A stretch of 64,000 nt of DNA from Minutocellus sp. GHC0000111. Lineage: Eukaryota. The stretch's first letter is position 1. The number at the start of each line of letters is the position of its first letter. The stretch lies in assembly GCA_977018835.1 (NCBI GenBank), contig OZ361261.1:496001-560000 (forward strand). The letters run 5' to 3'. Of this stretch, positions 21,528 through 61,702 are shown piece after piece. The notes under the pieces were generated by a model. That model was not told the DNA's origin, made no database searches, and was given only the letters and a program-made list of their open reading frames with translations. A program made the position numbers and the translations under genes.

Positions 21528-21647
21528 TTTACTATCGGCACAGAGGGAGGAATTGTGACTTCGAGATTGCGAATGCTGAGATTCAGATTTGATTTTTGAA
21601 AATGGACCGCCATTATTCTGCCTGTATATCCTGCGATCGACGCAACA

Positions 21648-23390: not shown

Positions 23391-23519
23391 TTTTTTTTAG
23401 GTAAAGCACACCAATGGCAAGCAACAGTCTAAATTATGTCCCGAATTAGTAAAGATCTTATAATCCTATTGGTACATTCCTATTTCATGCATGCATACTT
23501 TGTAGATTAATTCAATTTT

Positions 23520-26367
23520 TCATTGTGATGTAGTAGGCGGTCGAAATCCAACGCTGATCCCCGTGATTTTTTGTGTTAAGCCCGTGGATGGATCCGGTAA
23601 CGCCTTTTGGCGGTACTTCGGTGATTGCAGTATACGTATTTCTTCATCTTGCTCCTGCTTCTGTAATGAGGTGGGTGATAGCGGACGAGTCTCGTTGATT
23701 GCCGTAGAGTATGCGCAATCGAAAGCCACATTCGATGGCCATTCGCAGACGGTGGTATCGCCCTTGTCTCCGTGAATGGTCAACGGCGAGGCCGGCGGTG
23801 TCAGTAATGGCACTGGTTCTGACTCCTCGCTGTCCGAGCCCTTTGCGTGAAGTTCTCCGTCTAGCTGTCTGTCCATCTCCACTTCGTACTCATCTTCCGA
23901 TGACGAAGCATCGCGTTCCATACCTCGCATCTGCGCGAATGACGGATGAGCCGGCTCTCCAAGGTCGAAGAGGGGAAGCTCTGGAAGGGTGATGTCTACT
24001 GGTCGCTGAGCCTCGCCCTTCTCAATATTTTGGTCCAATGTAGACAAAGACTCGCTAAACTTGATCCGCTGCCTCTTTGGAGAATCACCTTTCTCGCCCT
24101 TGAGCATGGCCGAAAGCATTTGAGAGGATAACATTCGCTTCGGGCACAGCGGCGACACCTTCTTCGACGACTTCGATGCAAGCTCGTGTGTCGCTTTGAG
24201 TAGAGCTAAGTCAATGTTGACAGATGTCCGTTGCTTGGTCTGCAATAAGCGGAGAGAAGAGTGACAAGCCAAACAAAAACAGGGGCTATGAGCATGCGCG
24301 GATGATATATGGGCGAGATGGAAAGAAATACCACTCGGCAGCTATAACAATAGAGCCAGCATTCACCAAAACAGCGTGGTCACGTACCATATACTCCATC
24401 GCAGTGTCCTCGTCGCACCCAAACGTTTGCATCAAGAACAAGGCACAGACTAATGGAGAGTACTCATCGCCCGTGGAGCAAGTTACGAGAACAGAGGAGT
24501 CTTCCCCAGACATGCTTTTGCGAGGGTCTTGCAGCGTTGAGGCAACTTGGCCAGCGGATTCCACCATGATGGAAGAGATGGCATCAGTGCCCTTGCTTTC
24601 GCAGCCGGGCAGAATGTTTGTTGAGTATCGCACCCCGTCGCCAATCCAGAGCTCATCCAGAGGATGACAAGATAGTTGAATGACGTGCGTCACATGAAGA
24701 GCAGCTAATGCAAGGCGCGATTCTGCAGCGGCAAATGAGCCCACGAAGAGATGACCTTTCAAGGTCACCGACGACTCTTGAGCATCATTGGTGGGGAAAC
24801 TAATGTGAGATATGTCGAGAGCCGATAACTGGGAGTGAAACATGTCATGGATCTTCTTCGAGGCGTATTCCCGACGTTCTTGTGATCCCGAAAGAATAGA
24901 CAAGGCAGGGGACTGCGGTGAGACTGTAGTGAGCATCTCGTCTACCCAGAACACTGCATTATCCTTGGAAGGCAAGCGAACTGGATACCTAGCATACGCG
25001 AGGTCGTCGCTGGTTTCTTGGGAAGTCGTAAGGAGCCTAACGGCGGCAGAGAGGACGTCTTGGCTCATGTAGTCGAATTCAAAGGCATCCGAAAGTAACT
25101 CATCGATCTCTTCGTCAGAAGTCATCTCAGCGATGGCTGTTACTAATTCCTCGGCATCCGAGAGTTCCTGGCGCATTTTGGGAAGTGGAGCCATGTGATA
25201 CGGCAAAAATGAAAGTGAGGTTAAAATCATCGCTCGACATTACATGCACGAGGAATAAGCTGCAGATGTGTAAGGCGCACGTCAACACTTACCATATCAG
25301 AACCCGCGTCAATGTTACGCTCACTTGGCGACGAAGGAGAAGACCCATTAATGATTTCCTCGAGTTCCTCGACGGAAATGGATTCTGTTTTCATTAGCTC
25401 ACGTGCCTCGATGGCTGCAGGGTCCTCGTCCTCGCTTTGGTCCTCATCCTCCTCTGCCTCTTCAATCTCTCGCTGCAATTCTGCATCAATACGAGCAGCT
25501 TCGTCGTCATCACTCTCAATCTCCTCTTCGTCCTCGTCCTCCAATTCAATGTTTTCGTCAGAATCTTCGTCAGCAGAGCCTTCGTCAATGATCTTTTTCT
25601 TGTGAATGAGAATCTTGTTACCATCCTCGACATCTGATTCGTCATCACTACTTTCCGACTCCGAGCTGTTGCTACTGCTGCTACTGTCTTCGCCATACGC
25701 ACTGGTACCGGTGCCTGCTCTCGCAATATCTCCCTCTCCTTCGATATCTTCATCGTCATCATCGCCGCCATCGCTGTCCATTTCGTCTTCGGAGGAAGAC
25801 GAAGACGATGATGATGACGACGACGACGAGCTGCTTGAGTCGTCATCGGCGACACTATTTTCCCTGGATCCTCCAACGGGAAGAGGCCTCTGAACATTAC
25901 GGCCCAGAGCCGCGACCGCTGCTACCTTCCCCGACACAATGTCCCAAGGACGGTGCTCAACACCATCGTCCGAATCATCGTCGTCACTATCCGTATCGTT
26001 GATACTATCGTCGTCATCGTCGTTACCACCCTCTTCATCGGTCGCGGGGGGACGTCCAGCATCGTTGACCTTGAGCTCGTCCTCACTATCACCGTCTGCA
26101 CTCACGTCCATGTTGTCGTCATCTTCTCCAGAAGCACCGAACGCCATCGGTTCCTTCCCGGCTAACTTGCGTGGCACCCCGGACGACAAGTGGGGCATAC
26201 CGTTCGCTGCCGACGGCGGTGGCAGTCCTCTCTTCACGACTCCATCGTCGGGCGGCGGAGGCTCTTCGTTGGGTTCGGAATTGCTAACTTTGTTGCGTCG
26301 AAGCATCTTCTTCTGGTGGGATTTTGGAATGGATTTCAATTGGCTGCTGCTTGGCTTGCGCGTCCAT
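23520..26367 (-). CDS. Acidic low-complexity protein with atypical dual-specificity phosphatase-like domain; introns 25168-25292 and 24240-24387; probable 1-bp insertion near 26291
   Basis: Phase-0 GT-AG introns join three ORFs (DAGSDM|ELSD and AMEYM|TKQRTSV). DSP-like HLFVGS...VTHVIQL...VLVTCSTGDEYSPLVCALFLM. The N-terminus MDAQAKQQ (ATG 26367) needs a frame change; the alternative start is 26306. Confidence 0.7.
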
Positions 26368-26966
26368 CGATCGAGTGCAATATCTTCTTTTGAGTATCTG
26401 TGTGGTAAAAGAGATTATGGATGGGGAGGTGCGAATGCGTGAAAAAGAACGGGAGATGGATGCATGATGAGTGTCATCGCATCGAAGCGAACCCAACGCG
26501 AAAGCAAGGCGAACCATCACGCAGATAAATGACTTGTTCGACTCAATAGAAGAATCCCTGACAACTTTCTCTTCGATGAGTTCTGTGGGAACGATGGACC
26601 TCTCGTCTCATCGCGGGTCATTCCATGATACGCCGCCGTTGGAAAATATGCCGAAAGCAGCACCATGTACAGTGACCACCGAAGCGCCATTGGTGAAAAA
26701 TCGGCACCGAACTACGCACACCGGCGGCCACAAACGCGTTGATTCCTCACCTCCTTCCGTTTCGCTTTTTATGCCGGCGTCTGGATTTTTTGGGCATGCG
26801 TTCGAGCGCCACCTGATTGTGAAAAATGCTCGCAAATCCAAGTCGCATGTGCAATGAGATTTTCCCTTATCTTCTAATCTCCTTTTCTCTTCTTTTTCAT
26901 CTATGACCAACCATCCATTTTTTTATTGATTGCAAGGCGCAAGGCCATCCAACCCACCAAGCCAAA

Positions 26967-27470
26967 ATGAGATCATCTTCCCAGACCCTGGCAATCGCTG
27001 CTGCCGGGAGTGTAACGGCTGCTTTTGTAACATATTATCTCTCCAAGGCAATATCAAAGTATGGCGCTAAAGGCTTTGTTCGTCTCGTATGGGAAGGGGA
27101 TCATCTCGAGCCGAACATTCGCGAGGCATGGGATGCATTGGACGGGCTGGAGGCGAACGCGGTGCCTCGAGAAATGAACAGATTGGAACAGGTGGAAATT
27201 TCCATTGAAACTGCTAGATTGAACTCCGTCGATGGATCTGACGACCAGATACTGGAGCAATATCCACAAATCAAGAAGGATCTGAGTATGGTGAGCTATC
27301 GGTTGGACAAAGTGGCGGCGGAGGTGGATTCTGTTCAATCGCATGGCAATGTAGAAGTGAAGAGGAGGAAGAAATGCTTGTCGAACAAATTGGTAGGTAT
27401 GACGGAACGTGCCGATTCGCTCATTGCATTATGTGGAGGTGGGATAAAGAAAAATATGGAGTATATTTGA
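26967..27470 (+). CDS. Membrane-anchored BAG-domain protein
   Basis: N-terminal hydrophobic anchor; BAG-like LDKVAAEVDSVQSHGNVEVKRRKKCLSNKL. Confidence 0.65.
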   Translation: MRSSSQTLAIAAAGSVTAAFVTYYLSKAISKYGAKGFVRLVWEGDHLEPNIREAWDALDGLEANAVPREMNRLEQVEISIETARLNSVDGSDDQILEQYPQIKKDLSMVSYRLDKVAAEVDSVQSHGNVEVKRRKKCLSNKLVGMTERADSLIALCGGGIKKNMEYI

Positions 27471-27598
27471 TGCAAACCAGCTATTGCATGTACCTACGTA
27501 AACAAAGCAACCTGAAAACTGAGTGCACAATTAATATTTTTACCAAGACCATGAATAGAATACATCAAATTTATTGATGCACGCCCACTCCTACTTTC

Positions 27599-28785
27599 TT
27601 AGGGCACCGAATCTCTGCGCTTCTTCTTGCCTGACTTCTTTGACTTCTTGACCTCGGTCTTGGCGCTTCGCTTCGATGCGCCCTTTTGCTTGGGAGTCTT
27701 GGTCTGGGGGATTTCCTCCTCTTCAACAATGGCATCCAACTCTTCGGCATCCGACGTCTTGCGCTTCTTCTTGCTGGACTTCTTCTTGGCAGACTTAGCC
27801 TTGGTACTGCTTTCTCCGTCGGTGCTTGCCTCGGATCCTTTCCTCTCTCTTCTCTTAGGCGTCTTTGGTGCATTCTCATCACCGCCATCTTCATTTCCTT
27901 CATCCTTGCTCGCCTTACGCTTGCGCTTGCCACCGGTGCTGCCGGCAGCTTCACCCTTCTCTACCCCAGCCGAATATCCAGGAAAGTCATACTCGATGCC
28001 CAAAGCCTCAAGCTTCTTACGCTTCGCGGCCTCCCTCTTGACGAGCCGTGCGGTGATCTTCTTCATCCCCTCTGCCGTTCGGGGCTTATTCACCTGCTCC
28101 CTGTTGAGGCCCTGCCAATCGATCTTGACGAACTTGCGATCGTGCCCGGCGAACAGTTCGGGGTGGCACTTATCGCGGGGCATGATGTGGCAAACCAGCC
28201 GCTTCTCCATGAGGAAGTAGCCAGACATGGTATCGGCCACGATGGCGGCAACTTCCGGATCGACGAACTGGACGAAGGCATAACCACGGGAGTTGCCGGA
28301 CTTTTTGGAACGAGACAGACGAAGCTTGCGGATACTGCCAAACTGGTTGAGGAAGCCGCGGATCTCAGCCTCCTCGAACCCGTGAGGAAGATGTCCGAGG
28401 TAGATAACAGACGATGGCTTCGAGGCCTTGGTGGCAGCCTTTTCTGCCTTGCTCTTCTTGGCCTTTGGCTGCTGCTGACCGTCGGCATTGCTCTTGCTAG
28501 ATTCACCCTTTTGTTTCTTCGCCTTCTTTCCCTTGTTACCGGCCTCCTGAGAAATCACCTGGACATTTTCTTCATCGTCACTGCTATCCCACTCGGGACC
28601 TTCATCATTGATGATTGTTGGAGAAAGTAGAGAATGAAAGAATGATGAGATATTGGATGCAGCAAGAGTAATCGACACAAGATGTGTTGGAACTTCAAAG
28701 AGCGACCAGAGCCATGGAGATGTATGTACCTACCATCAAGGGCGGCCAGTTTGGCCTCGAGGCTGCGGTGAAGCGTCTTGCTCAT
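27599..28785 (-). CDS. NOP15: Nucleolar RRM protein NOP15/NIFK; intron 28600-28733
   Basis: VIYLGHLPHGFEE...RLSRSKKSGNSRGYAFVQF...IVADTMSGYFL; KKLEALGIEYDFP; Lys-rich tail. Exon 1 encodes MSKTLHRSLEAKLAALD. Confidence 0.87.
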
Positions 28786-29074
28786 GATTTCCTTGCGTGT
28801 TGGCTTTGTAGTTGGATAAGTTTGGGCCGACTGGCTTGTTCTTTGGCGCGGGACGGAGGCAAAACTCGTGGTGAGCGCCAAGGGGCGAGCGACGGAAAGA
28901 CGAGAGATACGAATTCGCAGTTTCGCAGATTTGCAGCCAGATTACGCCGTACATTTTCGGCCGATACAAGATCCGAAGAACAGAATTGTAGAAGAGTTGC
29001 TTGCATCGTGCTGTGATCGCTCCCTTGAAGAGGTTCGCTGTAATATACCAACCTGATACACTCCTGACCTGAAC

Positions 29075-36046: not shown

Positions 36047-37408
36047 GGTGAAATTGTCTGCTTTTAACTCTTATCACTCTGCGAGTGGTGCCATTGTGCT
36101 CGTGCTTGGGTTGTACAGGGTCTGCTGATGACTGAGCTTGCAGGATACGCCGAGGCGTTGCGATGCGATGTTGCGATCTTGGTAACACTACAGCAGAATC
36201 GTCCCGGCGATGCCGGCTCGGACCTCAAAATTCTTTTTGGTCCCGTTTATCTAAATCACTCTAAGTGTTGGTAAACCATGATTTTCACCGAACAACCTTG
36301 TAACTAGAGTTTCCTCGGTTACCGAATTTTTTGTTGGTTCTTCGATTTTTGATTGAAATGCTTTTTTGCAGCCAAAAAGTTGATTCTCGTGTACCGTTCG
36401 TAGAATTTTGGTACAAAACCACTTACACTACAAACGGAAATAGGTACAAAAGTACTCACACGAGTGACGGATTTTAGTTGGTCCCGTCGAATGCATTTGA
36501 AATCATTTGGTTGGGCACTGTCTTTGTGCGATTTTCTTTGTATGAGCAATTTATGCAGTGGTTTGAGGCAATCTGTTGTTGTGATTGAAATATGCCAGGA
36601 GCCGTCTGTACGTCGCCTTAGAGAGCGACAGGATCCATGAAAGATCCGACGAGCCATAAGTAATTGACTAGTGTCGAGTTAGTGTTGTTGCTACGATATC
36701 TTTGCTGTGTGCTGGTGATTGAATATATTGGAACGTATGCTCTTGCTTTGGCTGGTACATATCGACTGGTACGTCACTGGTTGGTCCCGGCTGATTCGAA
36801 TTAGTTCATCCGACCCATCGCATCTTGCATGAGCACATCTTTTGCGCATCATTTCGTTCCGATGTCGTTCATCGGCACTTTGTGACACCGTGTCGTTGAG
36901 ATGCCCATCAGGGAACTCCGACCGACCGCCACAGGGCGGGAGATAGGCCATGTCGATCACCGTGCTGGGGAGCACGTAAATCTACTCCTCGCGAGTTTGT
37001 AATGCGCTTTGGTGGCGCAACTCTGCGAGCAACAAGTGTCGAGTTTGACTGCGCCGCAGGGCGTGGGCTCGAGGCCGAGTAAGAGCAAGCCGATGGGTAT
37101 GCGCTCGAGCCACAAATGCAGGAAGGACCACTGCTCTTGATAGAGGTCGAGCTGACATGTGTCAGCGCTCTGGCAAGTGGACACTACTGCGACATGAGTG
37201 AGAGGGAGGAGTTGATCGCCCCCCTGGTGTCGTTCGGATCACATGCGTGATGCCGACGTGCCGAAGAGCTGTTGGAAGCTCAACACATTGCGGTGGAGCA
37301 TGTGTATCAGGAATGGCCGTTCCAGACGGATGTCGTTTATGTCTCACCCATGTTGCTTGTTCCTGTTGTGTTGTTTCATTTCACTGCACTAGGAGTTGAT
37401 CAGCAACA

Positions 37409-37996
37409 ATGGCTGAAACAATCATTGTCCAACGTGTTCTGAAGAAGTTTGGCTGCACCAACGAAAATGGTCAAGCACACACCGGCACCATTCGTTGGGC
37501 CACCATCACCATGGGGCTCAATAGCGCGTCCGTCTTCAACTCGATGGGCAAGACTGTCCTAGAAGGTCTCTTCAAGCGTCTCAGTAGGGATGCCGTCAAC
37601 GTTGAAGATGCGAACAATCGCCCGAACGATGACATCCGCACCATGAAGGCCACATCCAATGTTGTGTTGGGTGTGCGTTATTTCTCGGGTAGAGGTGCAC
37701 CCATGGATCAGGTGATGGCGAAGCTAGACCACGTCAACGCCGTGCGTTTCGTCGAACTGCACGAGATCCACCGTCAGAAGGATGTCGACAAGGATGACAA
37801 GCCAGAGCTGCCGTCGCTCAAGAGTGGAGTGCGTGTGAATTCTGCATGCTTCCTCGACTGGCTTGAACAGGTGAAGACCGACCTTCGTGGTGAGACATCC
37901 GTCGACGGTGTCGGGACGCTCGCGGCCAATCTCCGTTTGAATGACGGGATGCATGGGAGAGGGCCCTGCCTGATGACATGCAGCATCTTAAATTGA
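37409..37996 (+). mobile_element. Probable truncated Ty1/copia (diatom CoDi-like) gag relic
   Basis: PELPSLK...FLDWLEQVKTDLRG...GVGTLAANLR resembles the gag region of diatom copia elements (from recall, not searched). The ORF ends abruptly, is TpA-poor and lies in a gene-free 2.5-kb gap. Confidence 0.4.
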
Positions 37997-38665
37997 TCAG
38001 CATCTTAAAGCCATCTACTCTAATTCTGTTCTATTTTTTAACATCTATTTGCTTGTCGACAACTTTATTTAGAACTATTTTGTGTTCCATGTGTAAGCAC
38101 ATCCATCTAATTATGTTCTGTTTTGTAACATCTATTTTTGCTTTTGTCGAGAGTGGCGGCGGCGGTGGCTGCTACTACTAGCAGCAGTAGTGCCCGGCCC
38201 CGCCTACGAGTCGACCAAACACCTGTCGACATCTGTCACTGGTCGAAAAACGCCGGTGGCGAAAAGGAGTGAACGATCTGTCAGGGTGACCCATGGACAT
38301 CGACACATCGACTGCCGGTGTTTTTTCATTGATCCCGTTGAAATCAGCTGTGATCAGCTGATTTCCGGGTCCTCTCGCGGAAACTACCTAAGCTAGTAGT
38401 AGCTCTCTCGCCTGCCGTACTGTTGGTACCAATTGGTAGAAGAGGCATTCTACACGCATCGCTTCAATCCAAGTCTAAAAATGTGTCTACTATCTTACAA
38501 ATTGCTACCGGCACCTTGATCCGCTTATTCACAAGAAATAAAAGTTCTGTCGCTTCCTTTTATGATACCTGGACCGGTACCTACTAGCTAGTACACGAAG
38601 GTGTCCTAGCTAGCTCTTTTTGGTCTTCAGCTCCTACTTACCAATTGGTAGTAGCTAGAACATTC

Positions 38666-42181: not shown

Positions 42182-42578
42182 TCGAGAATTTCGTACGATT
42201 GTCAATCAATCAAGCGGAAGATTTTGTAGGAGCGAAGGGCGCGGGAGATGACAAGAAGATGTTGTTTCGTAGCTTTTGCGAAAGTTCGAACGAATACGAG
42301 GCAAATAGAGATGAGAATTGGACGATCGGCTAATGGAAGGACCAGGGGAGAAGGAGCGGCAAAGATCGTTGGCTACGACGGCCTCGACTGCAATTTCGTC
42401 ATGCTTCCTGCCTCAGCGCCTTGCCTTTACATCAGAACAATTTTTTGGCGCGTTCCGGATGAGAAGGCGTCAGCCTCCCAGTAAGTCGAATAAGTCTCCA
42501 AAGTGAGTCTCGACCAAAGCACGCACGCAAGCATGAACCCCATTTTCTGCCCTTCTTCGTGGAAGCAAACGACCAACC

Positions 42579-43516
42579 ATGGCGGCGATCGGCACCAGAG
42601 CGGCATATTCTGCTCTCGTTTGCCAGAGATGTCTTGTCCCTAGCCGTTTCGTCGGCGTTTCCTCCACGTCGGCAAAAACGGCCCAACTCACCAGACACAC
42701 AACATTGCGACACAAATCAAAAACACCCGCAAACTTCTGTGCGGCCCACCCGGAGGATCGTCTCAAGGCGGCAAGGAGGAAGGCGCGGGCTGATCTTGGT
42801 TTGCCGGATGATGGCGATGACAAAGATACCACTGATGATCTTTCCACAGCAGCAGCACGAGATGTGTCCGTATCAGCGAAGGCCCATCCCGAGGACCGTC
42901 TCAAAGCCGCACGACGAAAGATGCTGGAAGCATGGGGCTGACAGTCGATGGGGATGGCAATGTCGTTGAATCCCGGGCGAGTGCACCAACTTTAACATCC
43001 GTCGGAAATTCCAATTGCAAGGATACCGATGAATCTGCCCCTCTGCCGATCTGCGCTCAAAACAACCACCCAGATTATCGGCTGAAAGTAGCAAGGGAGA
43101 GGATGTTGGCCAAGGTGAAGGGAGATGCTGGGGTCGGCACTGATATTACTGCTGCTGGTGGCTCGAGCCTTTTGCTGAAGCCGCCACGGATCGACCTGGA
43201 AATGTCCCCCGATCGGAGGCTGCGTCTGGCCCGAACCGAACAGGCGGCAAAGCCAATCCAGACCTTCAAACCTATGAAAAGGAAAAAGAGACGTCTCAAG
43301 AAAGGCGCTCTCCTTTCGAGACTTACATGTAGCACGGAGCAGCCGCCCCTCCTGCGCAACGATGGGTATTCGTCTGGATCGGTAACTGCCATGAGATTGC
43401 GACAGGCAAGGCACGACGCCATTGAGCGTCTCTTGGTTTCTTCGTCGCCGGCTGATGCTTCCTTGTTGTCGTCGTCTGCATCGTCAAAAGAAAAAGACAA
43501 CACAGGATCGTACTAG
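42579..43516 (+). CDS. Hypothetical protein with repeated HPEDRLKAAR-type motif, copy 1; 1-bp frameshift near 42929
   Basis: ORFs 42579..42941 and 42932..43516 share the motif (HPEDRLKAARRK x2, HPDYRLKVARER, SPDRRLRLAR). Adding one A gives MLESMGLTVD. Confidence 0.55.
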
Positions 43517-44048
43517 CGCGAGGTGGTCTCTAGCTCTTTTAATTTACACATTTTAGACCCAATTGATGATTCAATGCAATCCACAAGCACAGTGCATGTA
43601 TAGTACCGGTACGGGTATCAGTACATCTCTAGCTAGGAACTTACCGGCAGAACAAAGCAAAGCAACGCTTGCTGCTTTTACTACGTAGGAGTATTGTTGT
43701 CCATACTGATAAAGTACAGAATGCCTACACGTAAGTGTACGAGCGAGCCGGCAATGCATTTCTGCCTCACAAAAATGTCGAGTTGGTTGATACATGATGG
43801 TCGAGGGAACATGCGCCGTCCATCGCGCTCCTCTTTGACCAAGTGATGACTAAAACTGGAGAGGTGCTCTCCTCGACCCATTCCACCAAGAAGAGGAAGA
43901 AATCGCATTGGGCGGAGACTGTATGCCTGTGCTGAGCGAGGAGGCCCACAATTTTCACTGTTGGCCGCAACTGTTCCTTCTTGCTACCGTTCGATCATTC
44001 AAAGATAAACCTGCTCCTGCCTCCATCCTGACTGACTGATCCTTCAAT

Positions 44049-45001
44049 ATGATACTTTTTCTTCCAAAGGAGTGGCGTTCCGGGCCGAGCCTTCGTCTTA
44101 TTTCTTTGCTTCTGATATCGACCAAATTACTGGCGGTCGTTGGTGCGGAAGGTGATGAAGTGACGACCGACTTTGTCCTTGCCCCCGATGAGGCCAGGCC
44201 CAACCAAAGTAATGTCGACATTACTCTTGATGAATTCCAAGGCCTGCTCTTCACTCACGTCAACAATGAAGTGAGCGAGGTAGATGACGAGACGGGTTCT
44301 ATCAACCGCGCCGCTGGGGCGGACAGCATCTGGTCAGGGCTCGTCCAACACGGATGGGACATGGCAGCATCAACAACTTCGAATGACGACGAAATTGTAG
44401 TCGACGGGGTCGGCGAGCGATCCAGCGCTCACACCGCGGCGGCAGAAGAAAGGCAATCTTCGTTCCTGGTTTGCGTCAGGGGCGGTGATATGTCTGGCTA
44501 CGAGCGCCTCCGGCCCGTCCTCGAAGGCTTTGGGGTGGACATATCGGCCACAATGGTGGTATCGAACTTGCCGGAGGAGACCTGCCGCTTCGTCACAACA
44601 GCTACCAGCAAGGCTCAGTCTCTGGCAGGTAAAGTAGTCGACGGCCTAGCATTTGCAATCATCCCCATTTTCGACATGATAAAAATCTCCCTCGGAACGA
44701 TCGACGAGGTATCCAACGAGAGATGGGCAATTCCTCCGTCTTTGAGCAACAACAACCGAGCTCTGGCCGTCCTTTCCAATGGCACTCGGCAAGACGATGA
44801 TAGCAATGACTGGGATCGTTCCATCATGGTCGGTCTTGCTCCTGGAGTCGGTGGCAAATCAGATCTCGAATGCGAAACTATTGCCGGTGCACTCATCGCC
44901 GATATCAAGGTGATGGCGGAATAAGGTCTTTTACGTCGTCGTCGCCAGTTGCAGGGTTCATCGTCTACTACCTCCTCCGTCAATCTACGTGGTGGCACCA
45001 A
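44049..45001 (+). pseudogene. 5'-only fragment of the subtilisin gene created by the tandem duplication
   Basis: Identical to 46722-47674 and cut at the duplication junction before the catalytic domain. Confidence 0.85.
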
Positions 45002-45251
45002 GCTAATGGAAGGACCAGGGGAGAAGGAGCGGCAAAGATCGTTGGCTACGACGGCCTCGACTGCAATTTCGTCATGCTTCCTGCCTCAGCGCCTTGCCTT
45101 TACATCAGAACAATTTTTTGGCGCGTTCCGGATGAGAAGGCGTCAGCCTCCCAGTAAGTCGAATAAGTCTCCAAAGTGAGTCTCGACCAAAGCACGCACG
45201 CAAGCATGAACCCCATTTTCTGCCCTTCTTCGTGGAAGCAAACGACCAACC

Positions 45252-46189
45252 ATGGCGGCGATCGGCACCAGAGCGGCATATTCTGCTCTCGTTTGCCAGA
45301 GATGTCTTGTCCCTAGCCGTTTCGTCGGCGTTTCCTCCACGTCGGCAAAAACAGCCCAACTCACCAGACACACAACATTGCGACACAAATCAAAAACACC
45401 CGCAAACTTCTGTGCGGCCCACCCGGAGGATCGTCTCAAGGCGGCAAGGAGGAAGGCGCGGGCTGATCTTGGTTTGCCGGATGATGGCGATGACAAAGAT
45501 ACCACTGATGATCTTTCCACAGCAGCAGCACGAGATGTGTCCGTATCAGCGAAGGCCCATCCCGAGGACCGTCTCAAAGCCGCACGACGAAAGATGCTGG
45601 AAGCATGGGGCTGACAGTCGATGGGGATGGCAATGTCGTTGAATCCCGGGCGAGTGCACCAACTTTAACATCCGTCGGAAATTCCAATTGCAAGGATACC
45701 GATGAATCTGCCCCTCTGCCGATCTGCGCTCAAAACAACCACCCAGATTATCGGCTGAAAGTAGCAAGGGAGAGGATGTTGGCCAAGGTGAAGGGAGATG
45801 CTGGGGTCGGCACTGATATTACTGCTGCTGGTGGCTCGAGCCTTTTGCTGAAGCCGCCACGGATCGACCTGGAAATGTCCCCCGATCGGAGGCTGCGTCT
45901 GGCCCGAACCGAACAGGCGGCAAAGCCAATCCAGACCTTCAAACCTATGAAAAGGAAAAAGAGACGTCTCAAGAAAGGCGCTCTCCTTTCGAGACTTACA
46001 TGTAGCACGGAGCAGCCGCCCCTCCTGCGCAACGATGGGTATTCGTCTGGATCGGTAACTGCCATGAGATTGCGACAGGCAAGGCACGACGCCATTGAGC
46101 GTCTCTTGGTTTCTTCGTCGCCGGCTGATGCTTCCTTGTTGTCGTCGTCTGCATCGTCAAAAGAAAAAGACAACACAGGATCGTACTAG
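45252..46189 (+). CDS. Hypothetical protein with repeated HPEDRLKAAR-type motif, copy 2; same frameshift near 45602
   Basis: Duplicate of 42579-43516. Confidence 0.55.
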
Positions 46190-46721
46190 CGCGAGGTGGT
46201 CTCTAGCTCTTTTAATTTACACATTTTAGACCCAATTGATGATTCAATGCAATCCACAAGCACAGTGCATGTATAGTACCGGTACGGGTATCAGTACATC
46301 TCTAGCTAGGAACTTACCGGCAGAACAAAGCAAAGCAACGCTTGCTGCTTTTACTACGTAGGAGTATTGTTGTCCATACTGATAAAGTACAGAATGCCTA
46401 CACGTAAGTGTACGAGCGAGCCGGCAATGCATTTCTGCCTCACAAAAATGTCGAGTTGGTTGATACATGATGGTCGAGGGAACATGCGCCGTCCATCGCG
46501 CTCCTCTTTGACCAAGTGATGACTAAAACTGGAGAGGTGCTCTCCTCGACCCATTCCACCAAGAAGAGGAAGAAATCGCATTGGGCGGAGACTGTATGCC
46601 TGTGCTGAGCGAGGAGGCCCACAATTTTCACTGTTGGCCGCAACTGTTCCTTCTTGCTACCGTTCGATCATTCAAAGATAAACCTGCTCCTGCCTCCATC
46701 CTGACTGACTGATCCTTCAAT

Positions 46722-49700
46722 ATGATACTTTTTCTTCCAAAGGAGTGGCGTTCCGGGCCGAGCCTTCGTCTTATTTCTTTGCTTCTGATATCGACCAAAT
46801 TACTGGCGGTCGTTGGTGCGGAAGGTGATGAAGTGACGACCGACTTTGTCCTTGCCCCCGATGAGGCCAGGCCCAACCAAAGTAATGTCGACATTACTCT
46901 TGATGAATTCCAAGGCCTGCTCTTCACTCACGTCAACAATGAAGTGAGCGAGGTAGATGACGAGACGGGTTCTATCAACCGCGCCGCTGGGGCGGACAGC
47001 ATCTGGTCAGGGCTCGTCCAACACGGATGGGACATGGCAGCATCAACAACTTCGAATGACGACGAAATTGTAGTCGACGGGGTCGGCGAGCGATCCAGCG
47101 CTCACACCGCGGCGGCAGAAGAAAGGCAATCTTCGTTCCTGGTTTGCGTCAGGGGCGGTGATATGTCTGGCTACGAGCGCCTCCGGCCCGTCCTCGAAGG
47201 CTTTGGGGTGGACATATCGGCCACAATGGTGGTATCGAACTTGCCGGAGGAGACCTGCCGCTTCGTCACAACAGCTACCAGCAAGGCTCAGTCTCTGGCA
47301 GGTAAAGTAGTCGACGGCCTAGCATTTGCAATCATCCCCATTTTCGACATGATAAAAATCTCCCTCGGAACGATCGACGAGGTATCCAACGAGAGATGGG
47401 CAATTCCTCCGTCTTTGAGCAACAACAACCGAGCTCTGGCCGTCCTTTCCAATGGCACTCGGCAAGACGATGATAGCAATGACTGGGATCGTTCCATCAT
47501 GGTCGGTCTTGCTCCTGGAGTCGGTGGCAAATCAGATCTCGAATGCGAAACTATTGCCGGTGCACTCATCGCCGATATCAAGGTGATGGCGGAATAAGGT
47601 CTTTTACGTCGTCGTCGCCAGTTGCAGGGTTCATCGTCTACTACCTCCTCCGTCAATCTACGTGGTGGCACCAAGCAAACCCCAACTTCAGGTTTGTCCG
47701 TGAGCGATGCTTTCTCGGCAACTTCAGCCCGATTTGACAACCCAAATCGCCGCCATCTCCTTGATTCTACCTCTAATGTTTGGTCTCGCGCACTCGAGCG
47801 CGGCCTTGAGTCTCACCACATGTGTGCCTCTATGTTCGACGACATCGACATTCGCCTGAGACATGGTAACAAGGGTTTTGAATACATCCTCAATCCCATG
47901 AATGCAATCACTGCTGACGACGAATCCTCCGCGTCCAATACCGACTGCGTCATCTCTTTCATCGCTGCCCTTTCAACACATCCTTATGTCGTCACTGTTG
48001 AATCCAACGGGGAAGTTACGTCTGACAGCAACACCAACGCTCAATGGATTACTCAAACGAGCGAGGAGGGCCATACTCCTTTCTTTGATGCTGGTATCAC
48101 CGGAGAGGGAGAAATTGTTTCCGTCTCTGATAGCGGAGTCGATCTGCATAGCTGATGGTTCAAAGACGAGAGAGGCAACGGCGATATTTTCAATGGAGTG
48201 AGTATAAATGCAGCCAGAATGTTCTGTTGTTATTTTTCTCTCAACCTCTCCTTGATTTTTCTCACTATTAATCCTCCCTGATCACTTTCTTTGTCGTCGC
48301 TCTTTCGCACTCCTTCCCTCGCCATGATTTTGCTTTCAGAACTGGGATTTCTCTCGACGCAAGGTTGTCCGCTACGACAACACCTACCGCGATGACATCG
48401 ACCAGATTGGTGGTCATGGCTCTCACGTCGCTGGAACAATGATGGGTAACCGACCTGACGGTAAGGCAGATAAAGGCCAGGGTATTGCCCCCGATGCCAA
48501 GCTTCATGTTTTTGATATGAAACCTGGAAACGGAGGTATGAGCGATCCCGGTGCCAAGCGATTATTTGCTTCTATTTACAACAATGGTAATGGTGCCAAG
48601 GTCCACAATGGTAGCTGGGGACGTTCCGGTCGTCCCTACTCTAGCCATTGTCAAGATTGGGATGGCTCTCTATCTGGAGAATACGAAGATCTTCTCTACG
48701 TTGTATCGGCCGGTAACACTGGAGGTGGAGCGAGAACAGTCAAGAACCCTGCCGACTGTAAAAACACCTTTACGGTTGGATGCAGTCAGAGCATCGAAGA
48801 AGATTTGGACAGCAGAAACGACATGGGATTGGGGTACAGGACGTCTTGGTCTTCTCGTGGTCCCACTTACGATGGTCGAACGAAGCCTGACATCGTAGCT
48901 CCTGGTTATAACATTCATTCCGCCAATGGCAGCGTCGGGAAGGACACCTGTAGTACTCTTGATATGGCGGGGACAAGCATGTCCGCGCCTGTGGTGGCAG
49001 GTAATGCTGCTCTGGTGAGGCAGTACTTTCGTGACGGATTTTACCCCTGCGGAGTCAAGGGATGTGGAGAGAGTATCACGCCGAGCGGATCGCTCGTAAA
49101 GGCAGTTTTGGTGAATGGCGCACAGAATCTCAAGGGCGTCCAGTTCGTTCCCGGTGGCTCTGTGCGAACCATTTCGGAATACGACAATACTCAGAATATG
49201 GGCGAAGTGAGATTGAATAGATCCATGCCGCTCCGGGGAGAGAACGATATCAACACATACATTGTTAACAACAAGGAGATTGCCGTGGGAGAGACCGACT
49301 TTGTCGACATTGAAATCAACACCAACGGTCGGTCAGTCAACGAAATCAGTGTTGCTTTGGTGTGGTACGACCCACCGACGGCAGCATATTGTTCCAACTG
49401 CATTCGGAATAATCTTGATCTGAAGGTAGAAAAGACTAGCGGCGAATCGGTTCTGAGTACCTTCTATCCCAATGGACTGTCGAGCCCAGATGTTAAAAAC
49501 ACCGTCGAGAGGATTCGTTTGAGCGACGTCTCTCATGGTGATACATATCGCGTTTCGGTGAGGGCGGCCAATTTCGACGATGCCAGTCAAAAATATTCAC
49601 TTGCCCTCACTGGAAGCTTTGAGCTTGCCGCCGATGTTCCAATCGAAACATCTGATCCAACGGCTTCGCCCACAGCCTTGCCGACGTCGAGTCCGAGCAA

Positions 49701-50412
49701 GTCACCGACGGCCTCACCGTCGTCGAGTCCGAGCAAGCTACCGACGCCTCTGCCTACAATTACATATTCATCAAATCCCTCGGCAAGACCAAGCAAATCA
49801 CCCACCCCGAAGCCATCGTCCTTCCCAACCCTGAGCCCCATTACCAGTACCGCAAGTCCTACGTCTTCACCCGAAAGCCAGGCACCCACTTCAAGGCTTA
49901 CTCAAGTTCCAACAACACAGTTGACGCAGTCACCAACAAATACTGGTGTCGAGGCAAGAACCGAGAGTGCAGAGACAGGAGCCCCTACTTCTAGCCCATC
50001 TGTGGCGGCAACCCTGAGTCCAGTGACAACTGCTCCGGCGACCAGTCCACCTACAAAGGTCCCGTCTTCATCTCCAGTGTCCAAGAGCCCGACTCTAAGC
50101 CCAAGCGATTCCCCGGCCACCAATCCACCGACGAAGAACCCATCTTCCTCTCCAGCAACCAACCCACCGACAAGAAGTCCCTCATCATCTCCAGTATCTC
50201 GTAGCCCAACTTCCAGCCCAACCATAACACCGGTTCAGTTGCCAGCCAATGGCGGTATAGAGACGAGGACCGAAGGTGGGGAGGCAGCAGGAGATAATGA
50301 CGAAGACGCAGAGTACCAGCAGTGGTGTCTACTAAATGAAAAGGAATGCAAGAAAGCAGAAAAGGAGAAACAGAAGCAAAAGGAGAAGGCCGAGAAGGAG
50401 GTGAGTGATTGA
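46722..50412 (+). pseudogene. Secreted subtilisin-like S8 protease (Kp43/Tag-like) with Pro/Thr/Ser-rich tail; intron 48198-48339; in-frame stops at 47595-47597 (TAA) and 48153-48155 (TGA)
   Basis: Signal peptide; catalytic D in VSVSDSGVD, H in HGSHVAGT, S in AGTSMSAP; SSRGPTYDGRTKPDIVAPG; SPT-type repeats at about 49650-50230. One frame throughout apart from the two stops. Confidence 0.9.
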
Positions 50413-50977
50413 ATCTCCCTTCTTACTAGATCTATGTCATAGCTAGACTCAACATTGCCGCTATCATGCTGCACGAGGAACGTACATTGTACTCAAATTT
50501 CATTTTATTGACTCATCGATGCTTATTTGTTTATCATTTCAATTCCATCAAATTTGCTTCTCCCCGCAATGATGCAAAACAAAAGGCTGCAAAGGCACAA
50601 AAGAGCGGCGGTAGCGGTCGGTAGTTTCTTCTTCATACGTACCGGTAGGCTAGAGTTCCCCTAGCACCGTAGGCCTCGTCTTATCAGAAGTGACAATGGA
50701 TGGACCTGACCTCTTCACAAGGAAGGAAAAAAAATACATGTAAAGAGATGTAATTTTAGAGAAGTGATTGCCGCCACAGTGTACAGATGCGCTGATGGGC
50801 ATGAGTTATCCACCATTTTGCCTTAGCAACAGTCTCATACCGGTAACGGTAGATCTAGATCTGCATCTATTTTGCTTGACTTGTTACCTGCAGGAGGTGG
50901 TGTTGGTTCCTGAGACTGACTCACTCGACTCGATGACTCGACTCGGCCTCATAACCCATTGCTATTTGCCGCTGGCC

Positions 50978-53554
50978 CACAGCACCATCTGCCAGCCGGA
51001 TGACTCGCATACTTTTGGTCGCACTTTCGGTGGCCGGCCGGCGCGCCCAACGCGAGCCACCATGGCGGCAAAAATTCAAATTGCCGCCGCTACGTGCAGA
51101 ACGAAGGCGATATCTCGCGCTGGTGTGGGAGAATTACGGCACGAGACCAACCAGGTGCTCCCGACATCCTGGTGATATTCCCGTTGGTCTCGATCCATGT
51201 GTAATTCTCCATGAGCAAAAAAAATAACGGCCGCAATCCCGCGGTCAACACCGCAGACAGAGTTGCGGTGCAGGACGCCCTGGCTGAACCACTCGTCCGT
51301 CTTCGCAGAAAGGAACTTCATTACTACAATTTCATCGGCAACAACAACGACTCCTTGATGAATGTGTTGGGATGCAGTCCCATCATGCACGGCGCCGTCA
51401 TGTGCACTGCGGGCATCTCTTGGGTTTGAAGAAGAAGAAACACGAAGAAGACTGCGATGTGTTTTTTGTGAGGACAGACAACCAGAATGGATGGGATGAA
51501 ATGGTATCAAGACACTGCCTTGCCGACGACGTTCAGCGAACCCCATGCAAAAAGAGCATGTTTGTTCGCCTCGGTTCTGCATCAATCCTCGTGCAGCCGA
51601 CGCTCTCCATGATGATGATGGATGGATGGCTTTCGACATGGTCTCACGGTCGAGCAACAATTTCGCCTCGAAATGCCGCCGCCGCGGCTCAATTTGACGA
51701 AGGCATGCAATGCACTCCTCAAGCCGGTCGCACAACACATGTCGGTGGGACATGCGGCGATGGACTGCGAAATCAACAGGCAGATGTTGCTCGAGGCCCA
51801 GAAGCTCCCTGCTGGTGGGCACAGTGGCCAGGACGATGGGTGGGACAATGACGACGATGTTGGGACGGTGGGCACCCTGACCACGACGGAGGCCGGCGAG
51901 ATCAGTGAGGACGATGACGACGAAGACGAGGACCATGTGCCCTGTTGTGAGGACGAAGCTGATGTTGCAAGAGAGGACGCTACACATGAAGCATGCATGC
52001 AGCAGTGCTTTGAGAAGAATCGTCAGAAGCACGGTGATGGCGAGCCAGAGATGGGAGCTGTCGATGATGCCGAGGATGACGATGCCCCTCACTTCCATTT
52101 CCTGAAAAAGGCCGGCATTGAGGCGGCCGACTCAGGTAAAATAAGGGCAGTGCTGGCAGAATGCTGGAGAGCTTTGTCTCTGTTAATGTTTCTGATGGCA
52201 ACAACAAGAAGAAACCAAGGACAATGGAGTTCATCCACCACAACACCTCCACCAAAGGAACTCTCCTAGAGCACAATCGCGAGGAAGATGGCATGACGGA
52301 TGACGACATCAAAGAGCTCTGCAAAGCTTGCTCTAATTTGCTCCACACTCTTGACGCAATGTGTTCCAGGTTTCTGAAATGGTGCATGAAATGGGATGAT
52401 GAGGCAAAGAAGGCTGTGAGAGAGCTTGAAGCATTGATTGCAAGTGCCCTCAAGCAAGCACGGGCAATCGGTGTTAGCACAACGCCCAAGTGGCACTTAC
52501 TCGAAGATCACATCTTGGACCAACACATTTGGCTAGTGAAGAATGGATGGGGCGGCATCTGTTGGCTCGACGAATCGTTTGTAGAGCGAGCCCACCAAGA
52601 GGGCGTTAAGGAAGATCGTCGGACTCAGGGCGTCAAGGGATGTGAAGCCCAACAGACGGCGCAGTTCAAGGCTGAGGAGAGGGCATCCAATCCAAAGGTC
52701 GAGGAGAGGCGGGAGCGAAACTCTCGGGTGGCAAGAACAAGGAAAAGGACAAGGACCGAAGCTGTTAAAGCAGAAACTGATGACAAGCGCCAACAAATGA
52801 TCATGATGGCCACCGATGGAGATGAGGATGTAGAGATGGGAGCAGGGCATGTGTAAAATTAGAAAATGAAATTACACTGCTGCTGCACAATGACAAATGA
52901 ATTGCATGGTCCAACTTTTACAAACAGCATCGCGATTGAGCAAACAAACACATCACGTCCTTCTTAACTCACCCATTTATCTCCCAGACCAAAAAGTCCC
53001 TTTGTCGGGTTGATTGTTGCATAAACTTATCCCAACACTATCTGTCTCTCCTCGGGCGCAAAAATGTTGTCGGAGTTCCGGGAGGTCGAGTGGGGATGCG
53101 ATCGGTCGGGATCAGCGAGAGTCGGTCATGCGGGGGGTGCGGCGCAATCCCGGCAGTTTATCATCAACAACAACGTGGGAAAGTACCAGAGGGTCTGGGG
53201 CATCACAACGGGAGCACGACGAGCACAAAGACGGAGCAATGGCACCACCCCGGAGAAACGAACGGCCGACAGATGGAGGAAAAGTAGGCCGATGGTTCGT
53301 GGCGTTGATACGCAGCGGAGGCCAATCTGAGGATACAGTAAGCTTCAACTATATCCAAACATGATAATGAATGCGTATTTGGTACGAAAATATAGTTATA
53401 CGCCGGCGCAACGCCGACGGACCACCATGGTGTTGGACGGTCAAAGAATGGGTGACGAACGAGATTGGGTTTTGGTGGGTTTCTTCGTGAAGTGTTCGCC
53501 TTCTGCCAAAAACCGCTTCATCCGACCGGCGAAACAAGACGAGATGGGGCTGTG
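50978..53554 (+). mobile_element. Internally deleted Chapaev/Transib(RAG1)-lineage DNA transposon
   Basis: Termini CACAGCACCATCT and AGATGGGGCTGTG (12/13 inverted match); GGCC direct repeat at 50974-50977 and 53555-53558; internal transposase relic. Confidence 0.88.
51211..52856 (+). pseudogene. Degenerate DDE transposase relic (frameshifted; only the C-terminal His-His/catalytic Glu segment recognisable)
   Basis: TPKWHLLEDH...GGICWLDESFVERAHQEG (about 52482-52604) parallels RAG1 YFHKTLAH...GSIGAWASEGNESGN and the corresponding Transib/Chapaev motif. Confidence 0.75.
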
Positions 53555-53607
53555 GGCCAGCCGCCGTTCGTGTCGTTGGGCGCTTGCTTGATGTTGCTGT
53601 GACCGAT

Positions 53608-55023
53608 ATGCCAGCCGCCATGGTGCCCAGGAGTTCCACCGCCGTTCTTCCCGGATACGAGGCACAGATATCAGACGGTGGTGTCGAACACTCAGAGGCG
53701 AAACTTAGTACAGCTGCCGCTGCTCTTCGAGAACAGCTTTGTGAATGCTCGGCGGGAAAGTCTGTCGACATCTGTGAGAGACCCTGTCGTCGAGACGACG
53801 AAACTCTGTCGTATCGATGCCGCGTAACATTTCAATTGCTCTGTAGTGGTGGTGACGGAGTTTGGGAGTACGCAATGCGGACCAACAAAAAAGCTGTCTC
53901 GATCAATTGTTCACGCTTTCCAATTGCTACGCTTCGAATTCAAGTGGCAATGGATGAGCTCATGCATTTGTTCAACGATGATACAAACGAATGCGCCACC
54001 CTCCTCTCGGCTCGACCGGCCTCGATTTCCTTTGCATCTTCTTGGGTGGATGACAAAGATCTCACAGTCACAATCAATTACACCGAGCAATTGCCAGCAC
54101 TATCAACTGATGAGGAATCTAAATGGTTGAGTGAAGCCGATGAAGTTCGAAGACAATGTAGGCTGACAAGTTTGACAGGCCGTTCTCGAAAACGCAAGCT
54201 AGTTTCGTATGACCAAAACAGCAACGACGGGGGCAATATTGTGATTAGGGACTCAATCACTATTTGTTACGATGTTGCACATGGAAACAAAATCGATGTT
54301 CTTGTTGGAGATTGCCAACCTCCTCACGAAGGGGATATATGCATCAAATATGAAAAGCCGGAGGATGCATTTGCTCATCCAAATGGCAATGCAATGAAAA
54401 TGGCATTAAGCTGGATCCTCACTCGCATGACCCTGATATCAAGTGAACTCCGCGACAACGACATTGGTCTCCTTGAGATGTACTGTGGTTGTGGCGCGCA
54501 CACGGTGCCCATAGCAAAAGTTTGTTCGAACATTTCATTTATCTCTTGCGTCGAACTGGATGAAAGGCTAATTATGGCTTGTCAGAAAAACTTGCGACTG
54601 AACCGAATTGATGCCGAATTCAAAAGACCAGGCAAAGGGTTGGAAAAAGAAAGGAAATCATCCGAGCCCGTTGTTCAACTATTCCGTGGTGATGCAGGGG
54701 AGTGGGCAAAGAAGTCAAGGCACAAACTGACCAGCAGGAAGAAAATTGAAGAAGTTTGCAACAGTAACACCACGTGGTATGGGCGAGATTATACCATTCT
54801 GTTGGTGGACCCTCCAAGAGCTGGTCTTTCATCAGATGTATGCCGGATGGCAATTGAGGGCAGCTTCCAGCACATAATTTACATTTCTTGCGGAAAGGAG
54901 GCATTGCTGAGGGATCTTACAATATTGAGTAGTGTGTTTGAGATTGCTGACTGCACGCTGATTGATTTATTTCCCCGAACAGATGCAGTGGAAAGTCTCG
55001 TGCATCTACGAAGACGCAAATAG
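53608..55023 (+). CDS. trmA: tRNA (uracil-5-)-methyltransferase, TrmA-like
   Basis: SYRCRVTF, AFAHPN, LLEMYCGCGAHT, LVDPPRAGL, IIYISCG, DLFPRTDAVE. Confidence 0.9.
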   Translation: MPAAMVPRSSTAVLPGYEAQISDGGVEHSEAKLSTAAAALREQLCECSAGKSVDICERPCRRDDETLSYRCRVTFQLLCSGGDGVWEYAMRTNKKAVSINCSRFPIATLRIQVAMDELMHLFNDDTNECATLLSARPASISFASSWVDDKDLTVTINYTEQLPALSTDEESKWLSEADEVRRQCRLTSLTGRSRKRKLVSYDQNSNDGGNIVIRDSITICYDVAHGNKIDVLVGDCQPPHEGDICIKYEKPEDAFAHPNGNAMKMALSWILTRMTLISSELRDNDIGLLEMYCGCGAHTVPIAKVCSNISFISCVELDERLIMACQKNLRLNRIDAEFKRPGKGLEKERKSSEPVVQLFRGDAGEWAKKSRHKLTSRKKIEEVCNSNTTWYGRDYTILLVDPPRAGLSSDVCRMAIEGSFQHIIYISCGKEALLRDLTILSSVFEIADCTLIDLFPRTDAVESLVHLRRRK

Positions 55024-60211: not shown

Positions 60212-61702
60212 GAGTGATTCCACGAGACCGCCGACAAAATCGCCGTAAATAGTAAGGCACTAGGAATTTTTTTGTGCGATACTTTATGCAGCGCAAAAAT
60301 GAACCCACTAAATGGCCTCTCTCAACACGGCGAAAGCAAGGAGAATTCATCTCCACAAGAAGGCCACCAAATGATGGTATAACGATAAATAACTCCAAGC
60401 CAACCGATGTATACGCCAACTACATGCGTTAGGTGAGTATTGCATACTTGAAAGCAAACTCATTCGTACATGATGTGCTATTTTAGCAACATCTCCTCAT
60501 GCCCAGAAATTTTCAATATTTTTTTACCCTCAAAATGGCAAAGAATGATGGCTGATGCTTGTCTACATCCATTTCAATCCTCCCTGACCGGCATTACTTT
60601 CACTTGGGTAATATTGGGAGCAAGTTTGCGCCAGAGGGTCGATATTGGGCCCCATCTTTGTATCATTGTGGCCGTCACCATGGAAAGCAAAAACATCTGA
60701 AAGTAGCAAATCCCCAACTAAAACCCCCTTCAAGCCTCAACCACTGTTCCTTCACGCAATATCAGCACGCACGATGCTCATTCTATATTACATCCATCGA
60801 TCTCACGTGTTGGTTTGGCCGCTTTCTCCGGTTTCGTTCCTCTCGGGCGGCAGAAGCAATGAAGGTGAAATCTGGTGCCGACATCAGACACGGGACTTTG
60901 GGAATAGTTTTCTCTATGAATTGTCAAGAAATGCCACCACCCCCCACTCAAATGCGCTTGGTATATATATGGGTGAAGCGTCGACGGCTCAGTGCAACGG
61001 AAGTGGTGCATGGACCGCATAAAAGCATCCGGACCAACTTTCGGATGGGTGGTGTAATGGGGGTGGTAATGGCGCTGGGCCACATTTCGCGGTACAGGCA
61101 CGCACCGACGCACCGCTATCGCCCAAAAATCCCTTCCAGTAATATTCAGGAAGGCATCTAGGTGGTCAGAGTGTATGCGATGGCCGGGGTGGTGCTGTAC
61201 ATCGGGCGAACATGGTCGTGATGGAACGTCGGAAACTGTCGAAAAAATCGGGTCTAACGCGAACGAATTTTTCAAGGCTCAAAAAAGTAATTGCAAGTCT
61301 CCTGCTGCACCACAGTGTTGTGAAAGGCTATTACAAGGGTATGGTGCCCCGTAGTCTTGATTGTTCTCAATGGGAGGCACGTCGGCGACACATGTTGTGG
61401 CCCCATTCGTTGAACGAAATGGGTTTTGTTTCGATATAAAGTTTGATGTATTTTTTCTTTCTTGAAACAGCACAAGTGTATTCTACGACATAAAAATAAA
61501 TTTTCAAACAATAGTGTACCAAAAGAAACACTCTAATACCGTATCTATATCATGTGAGCACCAAGATCATTGTACCAACTTCCTTTTATTGTTGATTATG
61601 GTCTACAATACCCTTCTGAGTAAGGATCATCAATAAAAGGAAGTTGGTACAATGTTTACGAAACATCGCGGAGGGGGTGTCTGCTCTCTCGTGAAATCAC
61701 TC
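60212..61702. mobile_element. Non-autonomous TIR DNA transposon, Sola-like (GAG...CTC termini, 4-bp TSD)
   Basis: Left GAGTGATTCCACGAGACCGCCGACA versus right reverse complement GAGTGATTTCACGAGAGAGCAGACA; TCTA direct repeat at 60208-60211 and 61703-61706; no convincing ORF inside. Confidence 0.8.
61568..61654. repeat. Perfect 24-bp inverted repeat (28/29 when extended)
   Basis: CATTGTACCAACTTCCTTTTATTG ... CAATAAAAGGAAGTTGGTACAATG. Confidence 0.95.

Follow-up and report, generated by a model that had tools for sequence, protein, structure and literature searches.

The window analyzed here (i.e., 64,000 nucleotides of contig OZ361261.1 from Minutocellus sp. GHC0000111, a probable diatom) contains a 2,577-bp copy of a Chapaev-like cut-and-paste DNA transposon (50978 to 53554, plus strand). 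Its limits are fixed by two joints, both found in contigs of sequencing run X2 only: an empty-site joint (50973>53555, with four letters in common) and an end-to-end joint (53554>50978). The element so delimited begins with CAC (left terminal inverted repeat, 50978 to 50990, plus strand), ends with GTG (right terminal inverted repeat, 53542 to 53554, minus strand), and is bordered by a 4-bp target-site duplication, GGCC (50974 to 50977 and 53555 to 53558). Contig depth between the two limits is hundreds-fold higher than outside, although the summed depth is not taken as the copy number of the transposon. The hallmarks of Chapaev elements are CAC...GTG termini, a 3- to 4-bp target-site duplication, and a DDE transposase (PMC4079192); the duplication found here, known from a single site and one run, is within this range. 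The inverted repeat extends from 50968 to 50990 and from 53542 to 53564 (91% complementary) and takes in the flanking target site. Since the symmetry runs a few bases past the duplication (50968 to 50973 and 53559 to 53564), the insertion site itself is partly palindromic. The right end of the transposon lies approximately 50 bp upstream of the likely start (53608) of a TrmA-like tRNA uracil-5 methyltransferase gene (53491 to 55023; PF05958, E value of 8e-31), and a subtilase gene with a long Ser/Pro/Thr-rich repeat tail (48328 to 50412; PF00082) is located upstream of the element. The best-matching Atlas cluster of the TrmA-like protein is eukaryotic, with Bacillariophyta as its most frequent group, and it is this one protein that marks the source as a probable diatom. 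Elsewhere, AT-rich DNA (61568 to 61654) contains two nearly perfect inverted 29-bp arms around a spacer of 29 bp, and RNA runs contain 39 to 53% of the words of the 64-kb window.

The element is internally deleted and non-autonomous. It carries a frameshifted transposase remnant (51213 to 52856, plus strand), recognized from three-frame translation, from family proteins that are 96 to 97% identical, from conserved columns, and from the modeled fold of a full-length relative (P0017). Two open reading frames (ORFs; 216 and 238 amino acids, stop to stop) that had been described as separate units turned out to be pieces of this one transposase. The full-length relatives P0014 and P0017 are approximately 1,090 amino acids long; the remnant lacks approximately residues 329 to 900 of P0017, including two conserved Asp motifs. 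This deletion of the transposase middle (at approximately 52265 in the window) is common to most family records, which suggests one successful non-autonomous subfamily. The window copy also contains 2-bp and 3-bp insertions (51416, 51444, 51578, 51609, 51642, and 52177; three of them short TC/CT doublings), which are polymorphic among family copies and are the source of the frameshifts. Conserved columns of the transposase include D516, D615, E1004/E1008, a CxxC motif, and His, with putative catalytic roles. The structure model of P0017 (mean pLDDT of 76.8) matches RAG1 and HzTransib in Foldseek (E values of 2e-12 and 2e-5, respectively), so that the transposase is predicted to have a fold of the RAG1/Transib type. 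In its termini, 4-bp duplication, and RAG1/Transib-like fold, the element resembles the Chapaev (CMC) and Transib/RAG1 DDE transposons, and it was assigned by these features rather than by a tree with named Chapaev/CMC transposases. Pfam gave no transposase match for the window ORFs or P0017 (DUF1280 was matched in 3 of 18 distant relatives), and sequence searches against solved structures returned nothing relevant (one match with an E value of 2, otherwise coiled coils only).

The interior of the element is strongly depleted of the dinucleotide TpA. Dinucleotide counts gave 15 TpA between 51327 and 52856, with an observed/expected ratio (o/e) of 0.18. Within 51327 to 52136, limits that were picked post hoc, there are two TpA (51505 and 51981) versus 40.0 expected from base composition (o/e, 0.05), exactly as the preliminary description had counted them. 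This is the lowest value in the window: none of the 1,990 segments of 810 bp outside the element fell below 0.226, and none of the 1,942 segments of 1,530 bp fell below 0.372. At the coding-gene TpA rate of 0.43, the Poisson tail is 6e-6 for the 810-bp stretch and 1e-4 for the 1,530-bp stretch. The ratio is 0.59 for the whole window, 0.44 for the trmA ORF, and 0.82 for the intergenic DNA adjoining the element, in agreement with the earlier remark that these neighbors are richer in TpA. The dinucleotides TpG and CpA are elevated (o/e, 1.69 and 1.32, respectively), while CpG is near expectation (0.94). Neither ORF encodes any tyrosine, as had also been noted; the tyrosine share among 93 distant transposases ranges from 1.2 to 4.3% with none at zero, a range that says nothing clear about other genomes. 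Two tyrosine codons survive in the motif HYYNF (51319 to 51333, plus strand), which had been placed near the element edge but actually lies 341 bp in from the left end (50978). Most copies retain these codons (35 of 46 records for one and 39 of 40 for the other), and family columns and motif rates place them in contexts that rarely change. Position in the element, besides context, may be a factor in their survival: the non-coding ends retain TpA at an o/e of 0.55 to 0.56, though several sites there have changed too.

To describe the substitutions in the whole family, we gathered 302 proteins. After exclusion of 28 (relatives on short contigs, plus two short records that were unrelated or came from a different source), we compared the remaining 274 with the element by tblastn, retaining columns with gap-free, mostly identical flanks. 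The protein records were read back onto the window codons, so that only amino-acid-changing sites are visible, and rates were calculated from 486 plus-strand columns with at least 20 records, with only those single-base changes counted that are identified by one amino acid. One genomic copy can yield several records (the deepest column has 105), the records are a sample of the family from among the cluster members listed, a site that all copies have lost goes unseen, and a site's two strands compete. DNA copies of the family were not found in two scans of metagenome contigs. Five Ile/Met/Thr columns were tied between two centers and were set by hand to ATA because of the read shares at two columns and a relative's Ile at some of them; together with 52242 and 52006, seven columns were re-centered by hand, and 51709 and 51739 were dropped as ambiguous.

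In the final tabulation, A>G was found at 25.5% of the copy-sites where A follows T (1,153/4,529; 58 sites) and at 0.08 to 0.67% of those where it follows another base (A, 50/7,511; C, 32/9,884; G, 11/14,294). Thus, 1,153 of the 1,246 A>G observations are at TpA, which is the strong excess of TA>TG and TA>CA that the preliminary description had proposed to look for. With automatic centering only, the A>G rates by preceding base were 21.9% (T), 2.6% (C), 0.8% (A), and 0.09% (G), and the rate of C>T at CpG was 2.3%. After re-centering, C>T was found at 42 of 7,484 CpG copy-sites (0.56%) and at 55 of 23,728 others. Before the last re-centering, A>G stood at 3.27% overall versus 0.53% for C>T, each class of transversion at 0.09% or less (A>C, 0.01%; A>T, 0.03%), and the two strands were equal (24.8% versus 24.6%). 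The C>T rate before A, the context of fungal repeat-induced point mutation (RIP), is 0.39%; TpA is being lost and not gained.

The ancestral state, read from the protein columns, is TpA and not CpG. The 15 tyrosine columns contain 449 Y, 340 C, 311 H, 3 S, and 1 R (1,104 observations), and a relative keeps Tyr where a family copy has lost it. At 14 aligned columns with Tyr in the relative P0008 (63% identical), the copy P0036 shows 6 C, 6 H, 2 F, and no Y; Trp in the same comparison is kept at 8 of 8. At seven paired TG/CA sites in the run contigs, the TA-restoring share was equal to or greater than the partner share in 21 of 21 comparisons. As a counterpoint, the full-length P0017 has Tyr at three columns occupied by His in the relative P0009, and of the 12 Tyr of P0009 it retains 6. 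A misread direction, in which ancestral CpG decayed through TpG and CpA to TpA by 5-methylcytosine loss plus RIP, would yield the same TG and CA intermediates, and column 52006 contains C, H, and one R but no Y. That route would leave Arg as the third state, whereas the third state is Tyr, CGY Arg codons are stable (R in 564 of 572 observations at nine columns), relatives have Tyr at the columns concerned (52006 included), and the read shares favor TA. We therefore reject CpG decay on these columns as very improbable, in line with the preliminary argument that plentiful CpG speaks against ordinary methylcytosine decay.

The TpA bias is confined to mobile DNA, as observed for one family against a small, unpolarized control. 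Among the differences listed from the sequencing runs, 18 of 39 in the element are TA<>TG/CA (40 of 84 rows, with one outside the element dropped; four runs from two studies), compared with 3 of 39 in unique DNA (40 of 331 rows, with one inside a second repeat dropped; Fisher P value of 2e-4). In seven more rows from the element, the differing base is the partner in a site of this type. The control is drawn from 20 kb of mostly unique DNA, hardly covered by run X10; it is partly coding, and its 39 rows were chosen by the tool and come from 21085 to 28908 only. In run X1, transitions make up 60 of 66 differences in the element (6 transversions) and 140 of 218 in unique DNA (78 transversions). 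A tandem duplication (42329 to 47675; 2,673 bp), which may be recent or an assembly artifact, has an ordinary TpA o/e of 0.53 and a single, non-TpA mismatch; duplication alone would thus not have triggered hypermutation at that locus. With the excess at TpA, the equal strands, and a control lacking the bias, the claim of repeat-targeted A>G change in TpA on either strand is supported.

The change depends on a motif wider than TpA. With the changing base in brackets, the rates decrease in the order RT[A]Y (793/1,975, 40%; 26 sites), YT[A]Y (223/972, 23%; 12 sites), RT[A]R (137/1,092, 13%; 14 sites), and YT[A]R (0/490; six sites only). A second, weak context is a 5' A, mainly A[A]T (1.83% before the last re-centering). 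Few of the TpA surviving in 51327 to 52856 are RTAY (1 of 15, versus a host share of 33%; P = 0.02), while the shortfall over the whole element is not significant (12 of 47; P = 0.17). The load differs between copies. The lost fraction ranges from 0.40 to 1.0 with a median of 0.64 (45 records covering at least 10 of the 20 two-strand-readable sites), and load is overdispersed in all three site sets (P value of 0.004 or less). The preliminary description had asked whether the active element is equally depleted: the full-length copies are indeed changed (7 of 17 sites lost), but they are among the least changed, and the window copy has lost 18 of 20. The same changes recur in different copies. 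At seven C-terminal sites, 50 records comprise 43 haplotypes (shuffled mean, 46.7), and the four-gamete test was failed by 70 of 72 allele pairs (66 of 74 and 48 of 51 in the two other site sets). Strand coordination between changed neighbors did not exceed chance in any of four distance bins (e.g., 160 of 309 same-strand pairs versus 154.9 expected from shuffling, and 560 of 1,120 versus 553.2), one bin being slightly under expectation (271 of 580 versus 294; P value of approximately 0.016). The changed-or-unchanged state itself is common to neighbors, most strongly within 30 bp (407 of 569 versus 343). This pattern fits many separate post-insertion hits on copies with differing exposure, and gene conversion between copies could be a further source of the mosaic and of the four-gamete failures.

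We consider it highly probable (approximately 0.9) that a repeat-directed mutator specific to TpA acts on DNA. Cut-and-paste transposons move without an RNA-to-DNA step, so neither RNA editing nor reverse-transcriptase error can write these changes, which would therefore arise on chromosomal DNA after insertion. Because neighboring changes in one copy are not on a common strand, they probably build up by many separate hits. As for chemistry, the pure transitions, the preceding T, and the following pyrimidine, partly as in TadA editors, favor a deaminase of the TadA/ADAT type, to which we give slightly better than even odds. In chromosomal repeats, a candidate host enzyme of this type would act on the adenine of TpA, and the resulting deoxyinosine would be copied as G, turning TpA into TpG or CpA on both strands. 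Small RNA or the chromatin of repeats may guide the targeting. Transposases would be disabled by Tyr>Cys/His and Ile>Met/Thr/Val replacements, a degradation that would suit genome defence; yet the family is abundant, at at least approximately 100 records per column, and its spread has not been stopped.

The same targeting could instead act through a base mark at TpA, in which an oxidized thymine (such as 5-hydroxymethyluracil or 5-formyluracil, made by a TET/JBP-type enzyme), or N6-methyladenine that is subsequently deaminated or miscopied, would give T:A>C:G. Oxidized-thymine and N6-methyladenine marks and TET/JBP-type enzymes occur in protists. Since TpA reads identically on the two strands and RTAY is likewise symmetric, the attacked base cannot be told; adenine is the presumed one, and the same change could begin at thymine. 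We regard a base mark as unlikely, because the wider motif partly resembles the TadA preferences (PMC8989541) and because the only published proposal is a deaminase (bioRxiv 10.64898/2026.01.13.699255). More doubtful is an error-prone Pol eta-like polymerase that would misinsert G opposite T at WA during the filling of repair patches in repeats that are silenced or being excised. Pol eta makes more transversions and has a milder TA:AA ratio, whereas TA here exceeds AA approximately 38-fold and A>C and A>T are nearly absent. The second context, A[A]T, agrees with the WA hotspot named in PMC6423074, but the same-strand runs expected of long patches are absent.

A genome-wide mutation bias or GC-biased conversion against TpA, visible only in dead elements because selection holds genes, would accord with the TpA o/e of approximately 0.4 to 0.65 in host genes, and the unique-DNA control is small and partly coding. 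The scarcity of TpA-type differences and the many transversions in that control, together with the TpA retained in the adjoining intergenic DNA, make such a bias quite improbable; to our knowledge, GC-biased conversion has no TpA specificity. An assembly or sequencing artifact might be suspected because most of the protein records apparently derive from a single kind of long-contig assembly. Contigs from four separate runs in two studies vary at the same sites, however, and the change is context specific and absent from flanking unique DNA, so that an artifact is scarcely credible.

The TpA signature has a counterpart elsewhere. The preliminary description knew of no described mechanism, but TpA>TpG/CpA changes of the same kind were measured in mutation-accumulation lines of the rhizarian alga Bigelowiella natans (Mettrop et al., bioRxiv 10.64898/2026.01.13.699255). 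There, two viral insertions undergo an approximately 1,000-fold hypermutation, in which 230 of 231 changes are A>G/T>C, each of these 230 at TpA; it is active in only some lines, and a candidate ADAT2-like enzyme is proposed, with transposons as further targets (10.64898/2026.01.13.699255). TpA-poor coding sequences of B. natans are enriched for DDE and reverse-transcriptase domains (10.64898/2026.01.13.699255). Both cases consist almost only of A>G/T>C changes, restricted to TpA and found on both strands of foreign or mobile DNA. They differ in that B. natans provides de novo mutations with a single-copy virus insertion as the main target, while the changes described here are drawn from standing variation in a multi-copy cut-and-paste transposon of a probable diatom. 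The present case adds a DNA-transposon target, which does not pass through reverse transcription, a motif wider than TpA, and a pattern of many small hits; the main text of the preprint mentions neither diatoms, stramenopiles, trinucleotide, nor context, although its supplements may contain data on flanking bases. Our mainly open-access literature search found no report of TpA hypermutation in diatoms: the main text of a 2025 preprint on diatom transposable elements (10.1101/2025.10.24.684338) mentions none of TpA, dinucleotide, RIP, and hypermutation, and a Phaeodactylum mutation-rate paper (PMC6604790) does not mention TpA.

Two other systems invite comparison. Fungal RIP converts C to T, typically CpA to TpA, on repeated DNA in ascomycetes. 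Like RIP, the changes described here are transitions at a particular dinucleotide and cluster in DNA that is repeated or mobile, but the base change is the opposite, strand coordination is absent, and the local tandem duplication, which may be recent or an assembly artifact, has ordinary TpA. Editors derived from TadA work best with T before and C after the target, disfavor a following A, and are least active after A (PMC8989541), and ADAR prefers an upstream U (10.64898/2026.01.13.699255). The A>G outcome and the preceding T/U are shared with these deaminases, TadA editors likewise favoring a following C over A; in contrast, the need for a 5' T is far stricter here, and 5' A ranks second here but lowest for TadA editors. 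Tentatively, and at somewhat less than even odds, we suggest that diatoms possess a dedicated pathway in which an adenine deaminase that naturally acts on DNA is directed to transposons and alters RT[A]Y a few sites at a time on both strands, i.e., a RIP-like immunity of opposite chemistry. Rhizarian algae would have it in common with diatoms, and it may therefore date far back in the SAR lineage.

The signature has so far been measured in one alga only, on virus insertions. Its presence in a cut-and-paste family of a probable diatom adds a second major lineage, as well as elements without an RNA-to-DNA step. The contrast of RT[A]Y with YT[A]R offers a ready substrate pair for assays of candidate enzymes in diatoms amenable to genetics. 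A DNA adenine deaminase occurring in nature would be of interest for base editing, and in diatom genomes the process would also skew GC content and the dating of transposons.

A second insertion in the window (36149 to 38425) is missing from some contigs of runs X1, X2, and X4 (joint 36148>38426) and has raised depth; terminal inverted repeats were not found for it. Within it, the stretch from 37100 to 37990 has a TpA o/e of 0.26 with raised TpG and CpA, and a 195-amino-acid ORF (37409 to 37993) has two relatives. The four Tyr of a relative align to Y, H, F, and R in this ORF (three records only), and the insertion is possibly a second target of the same process.
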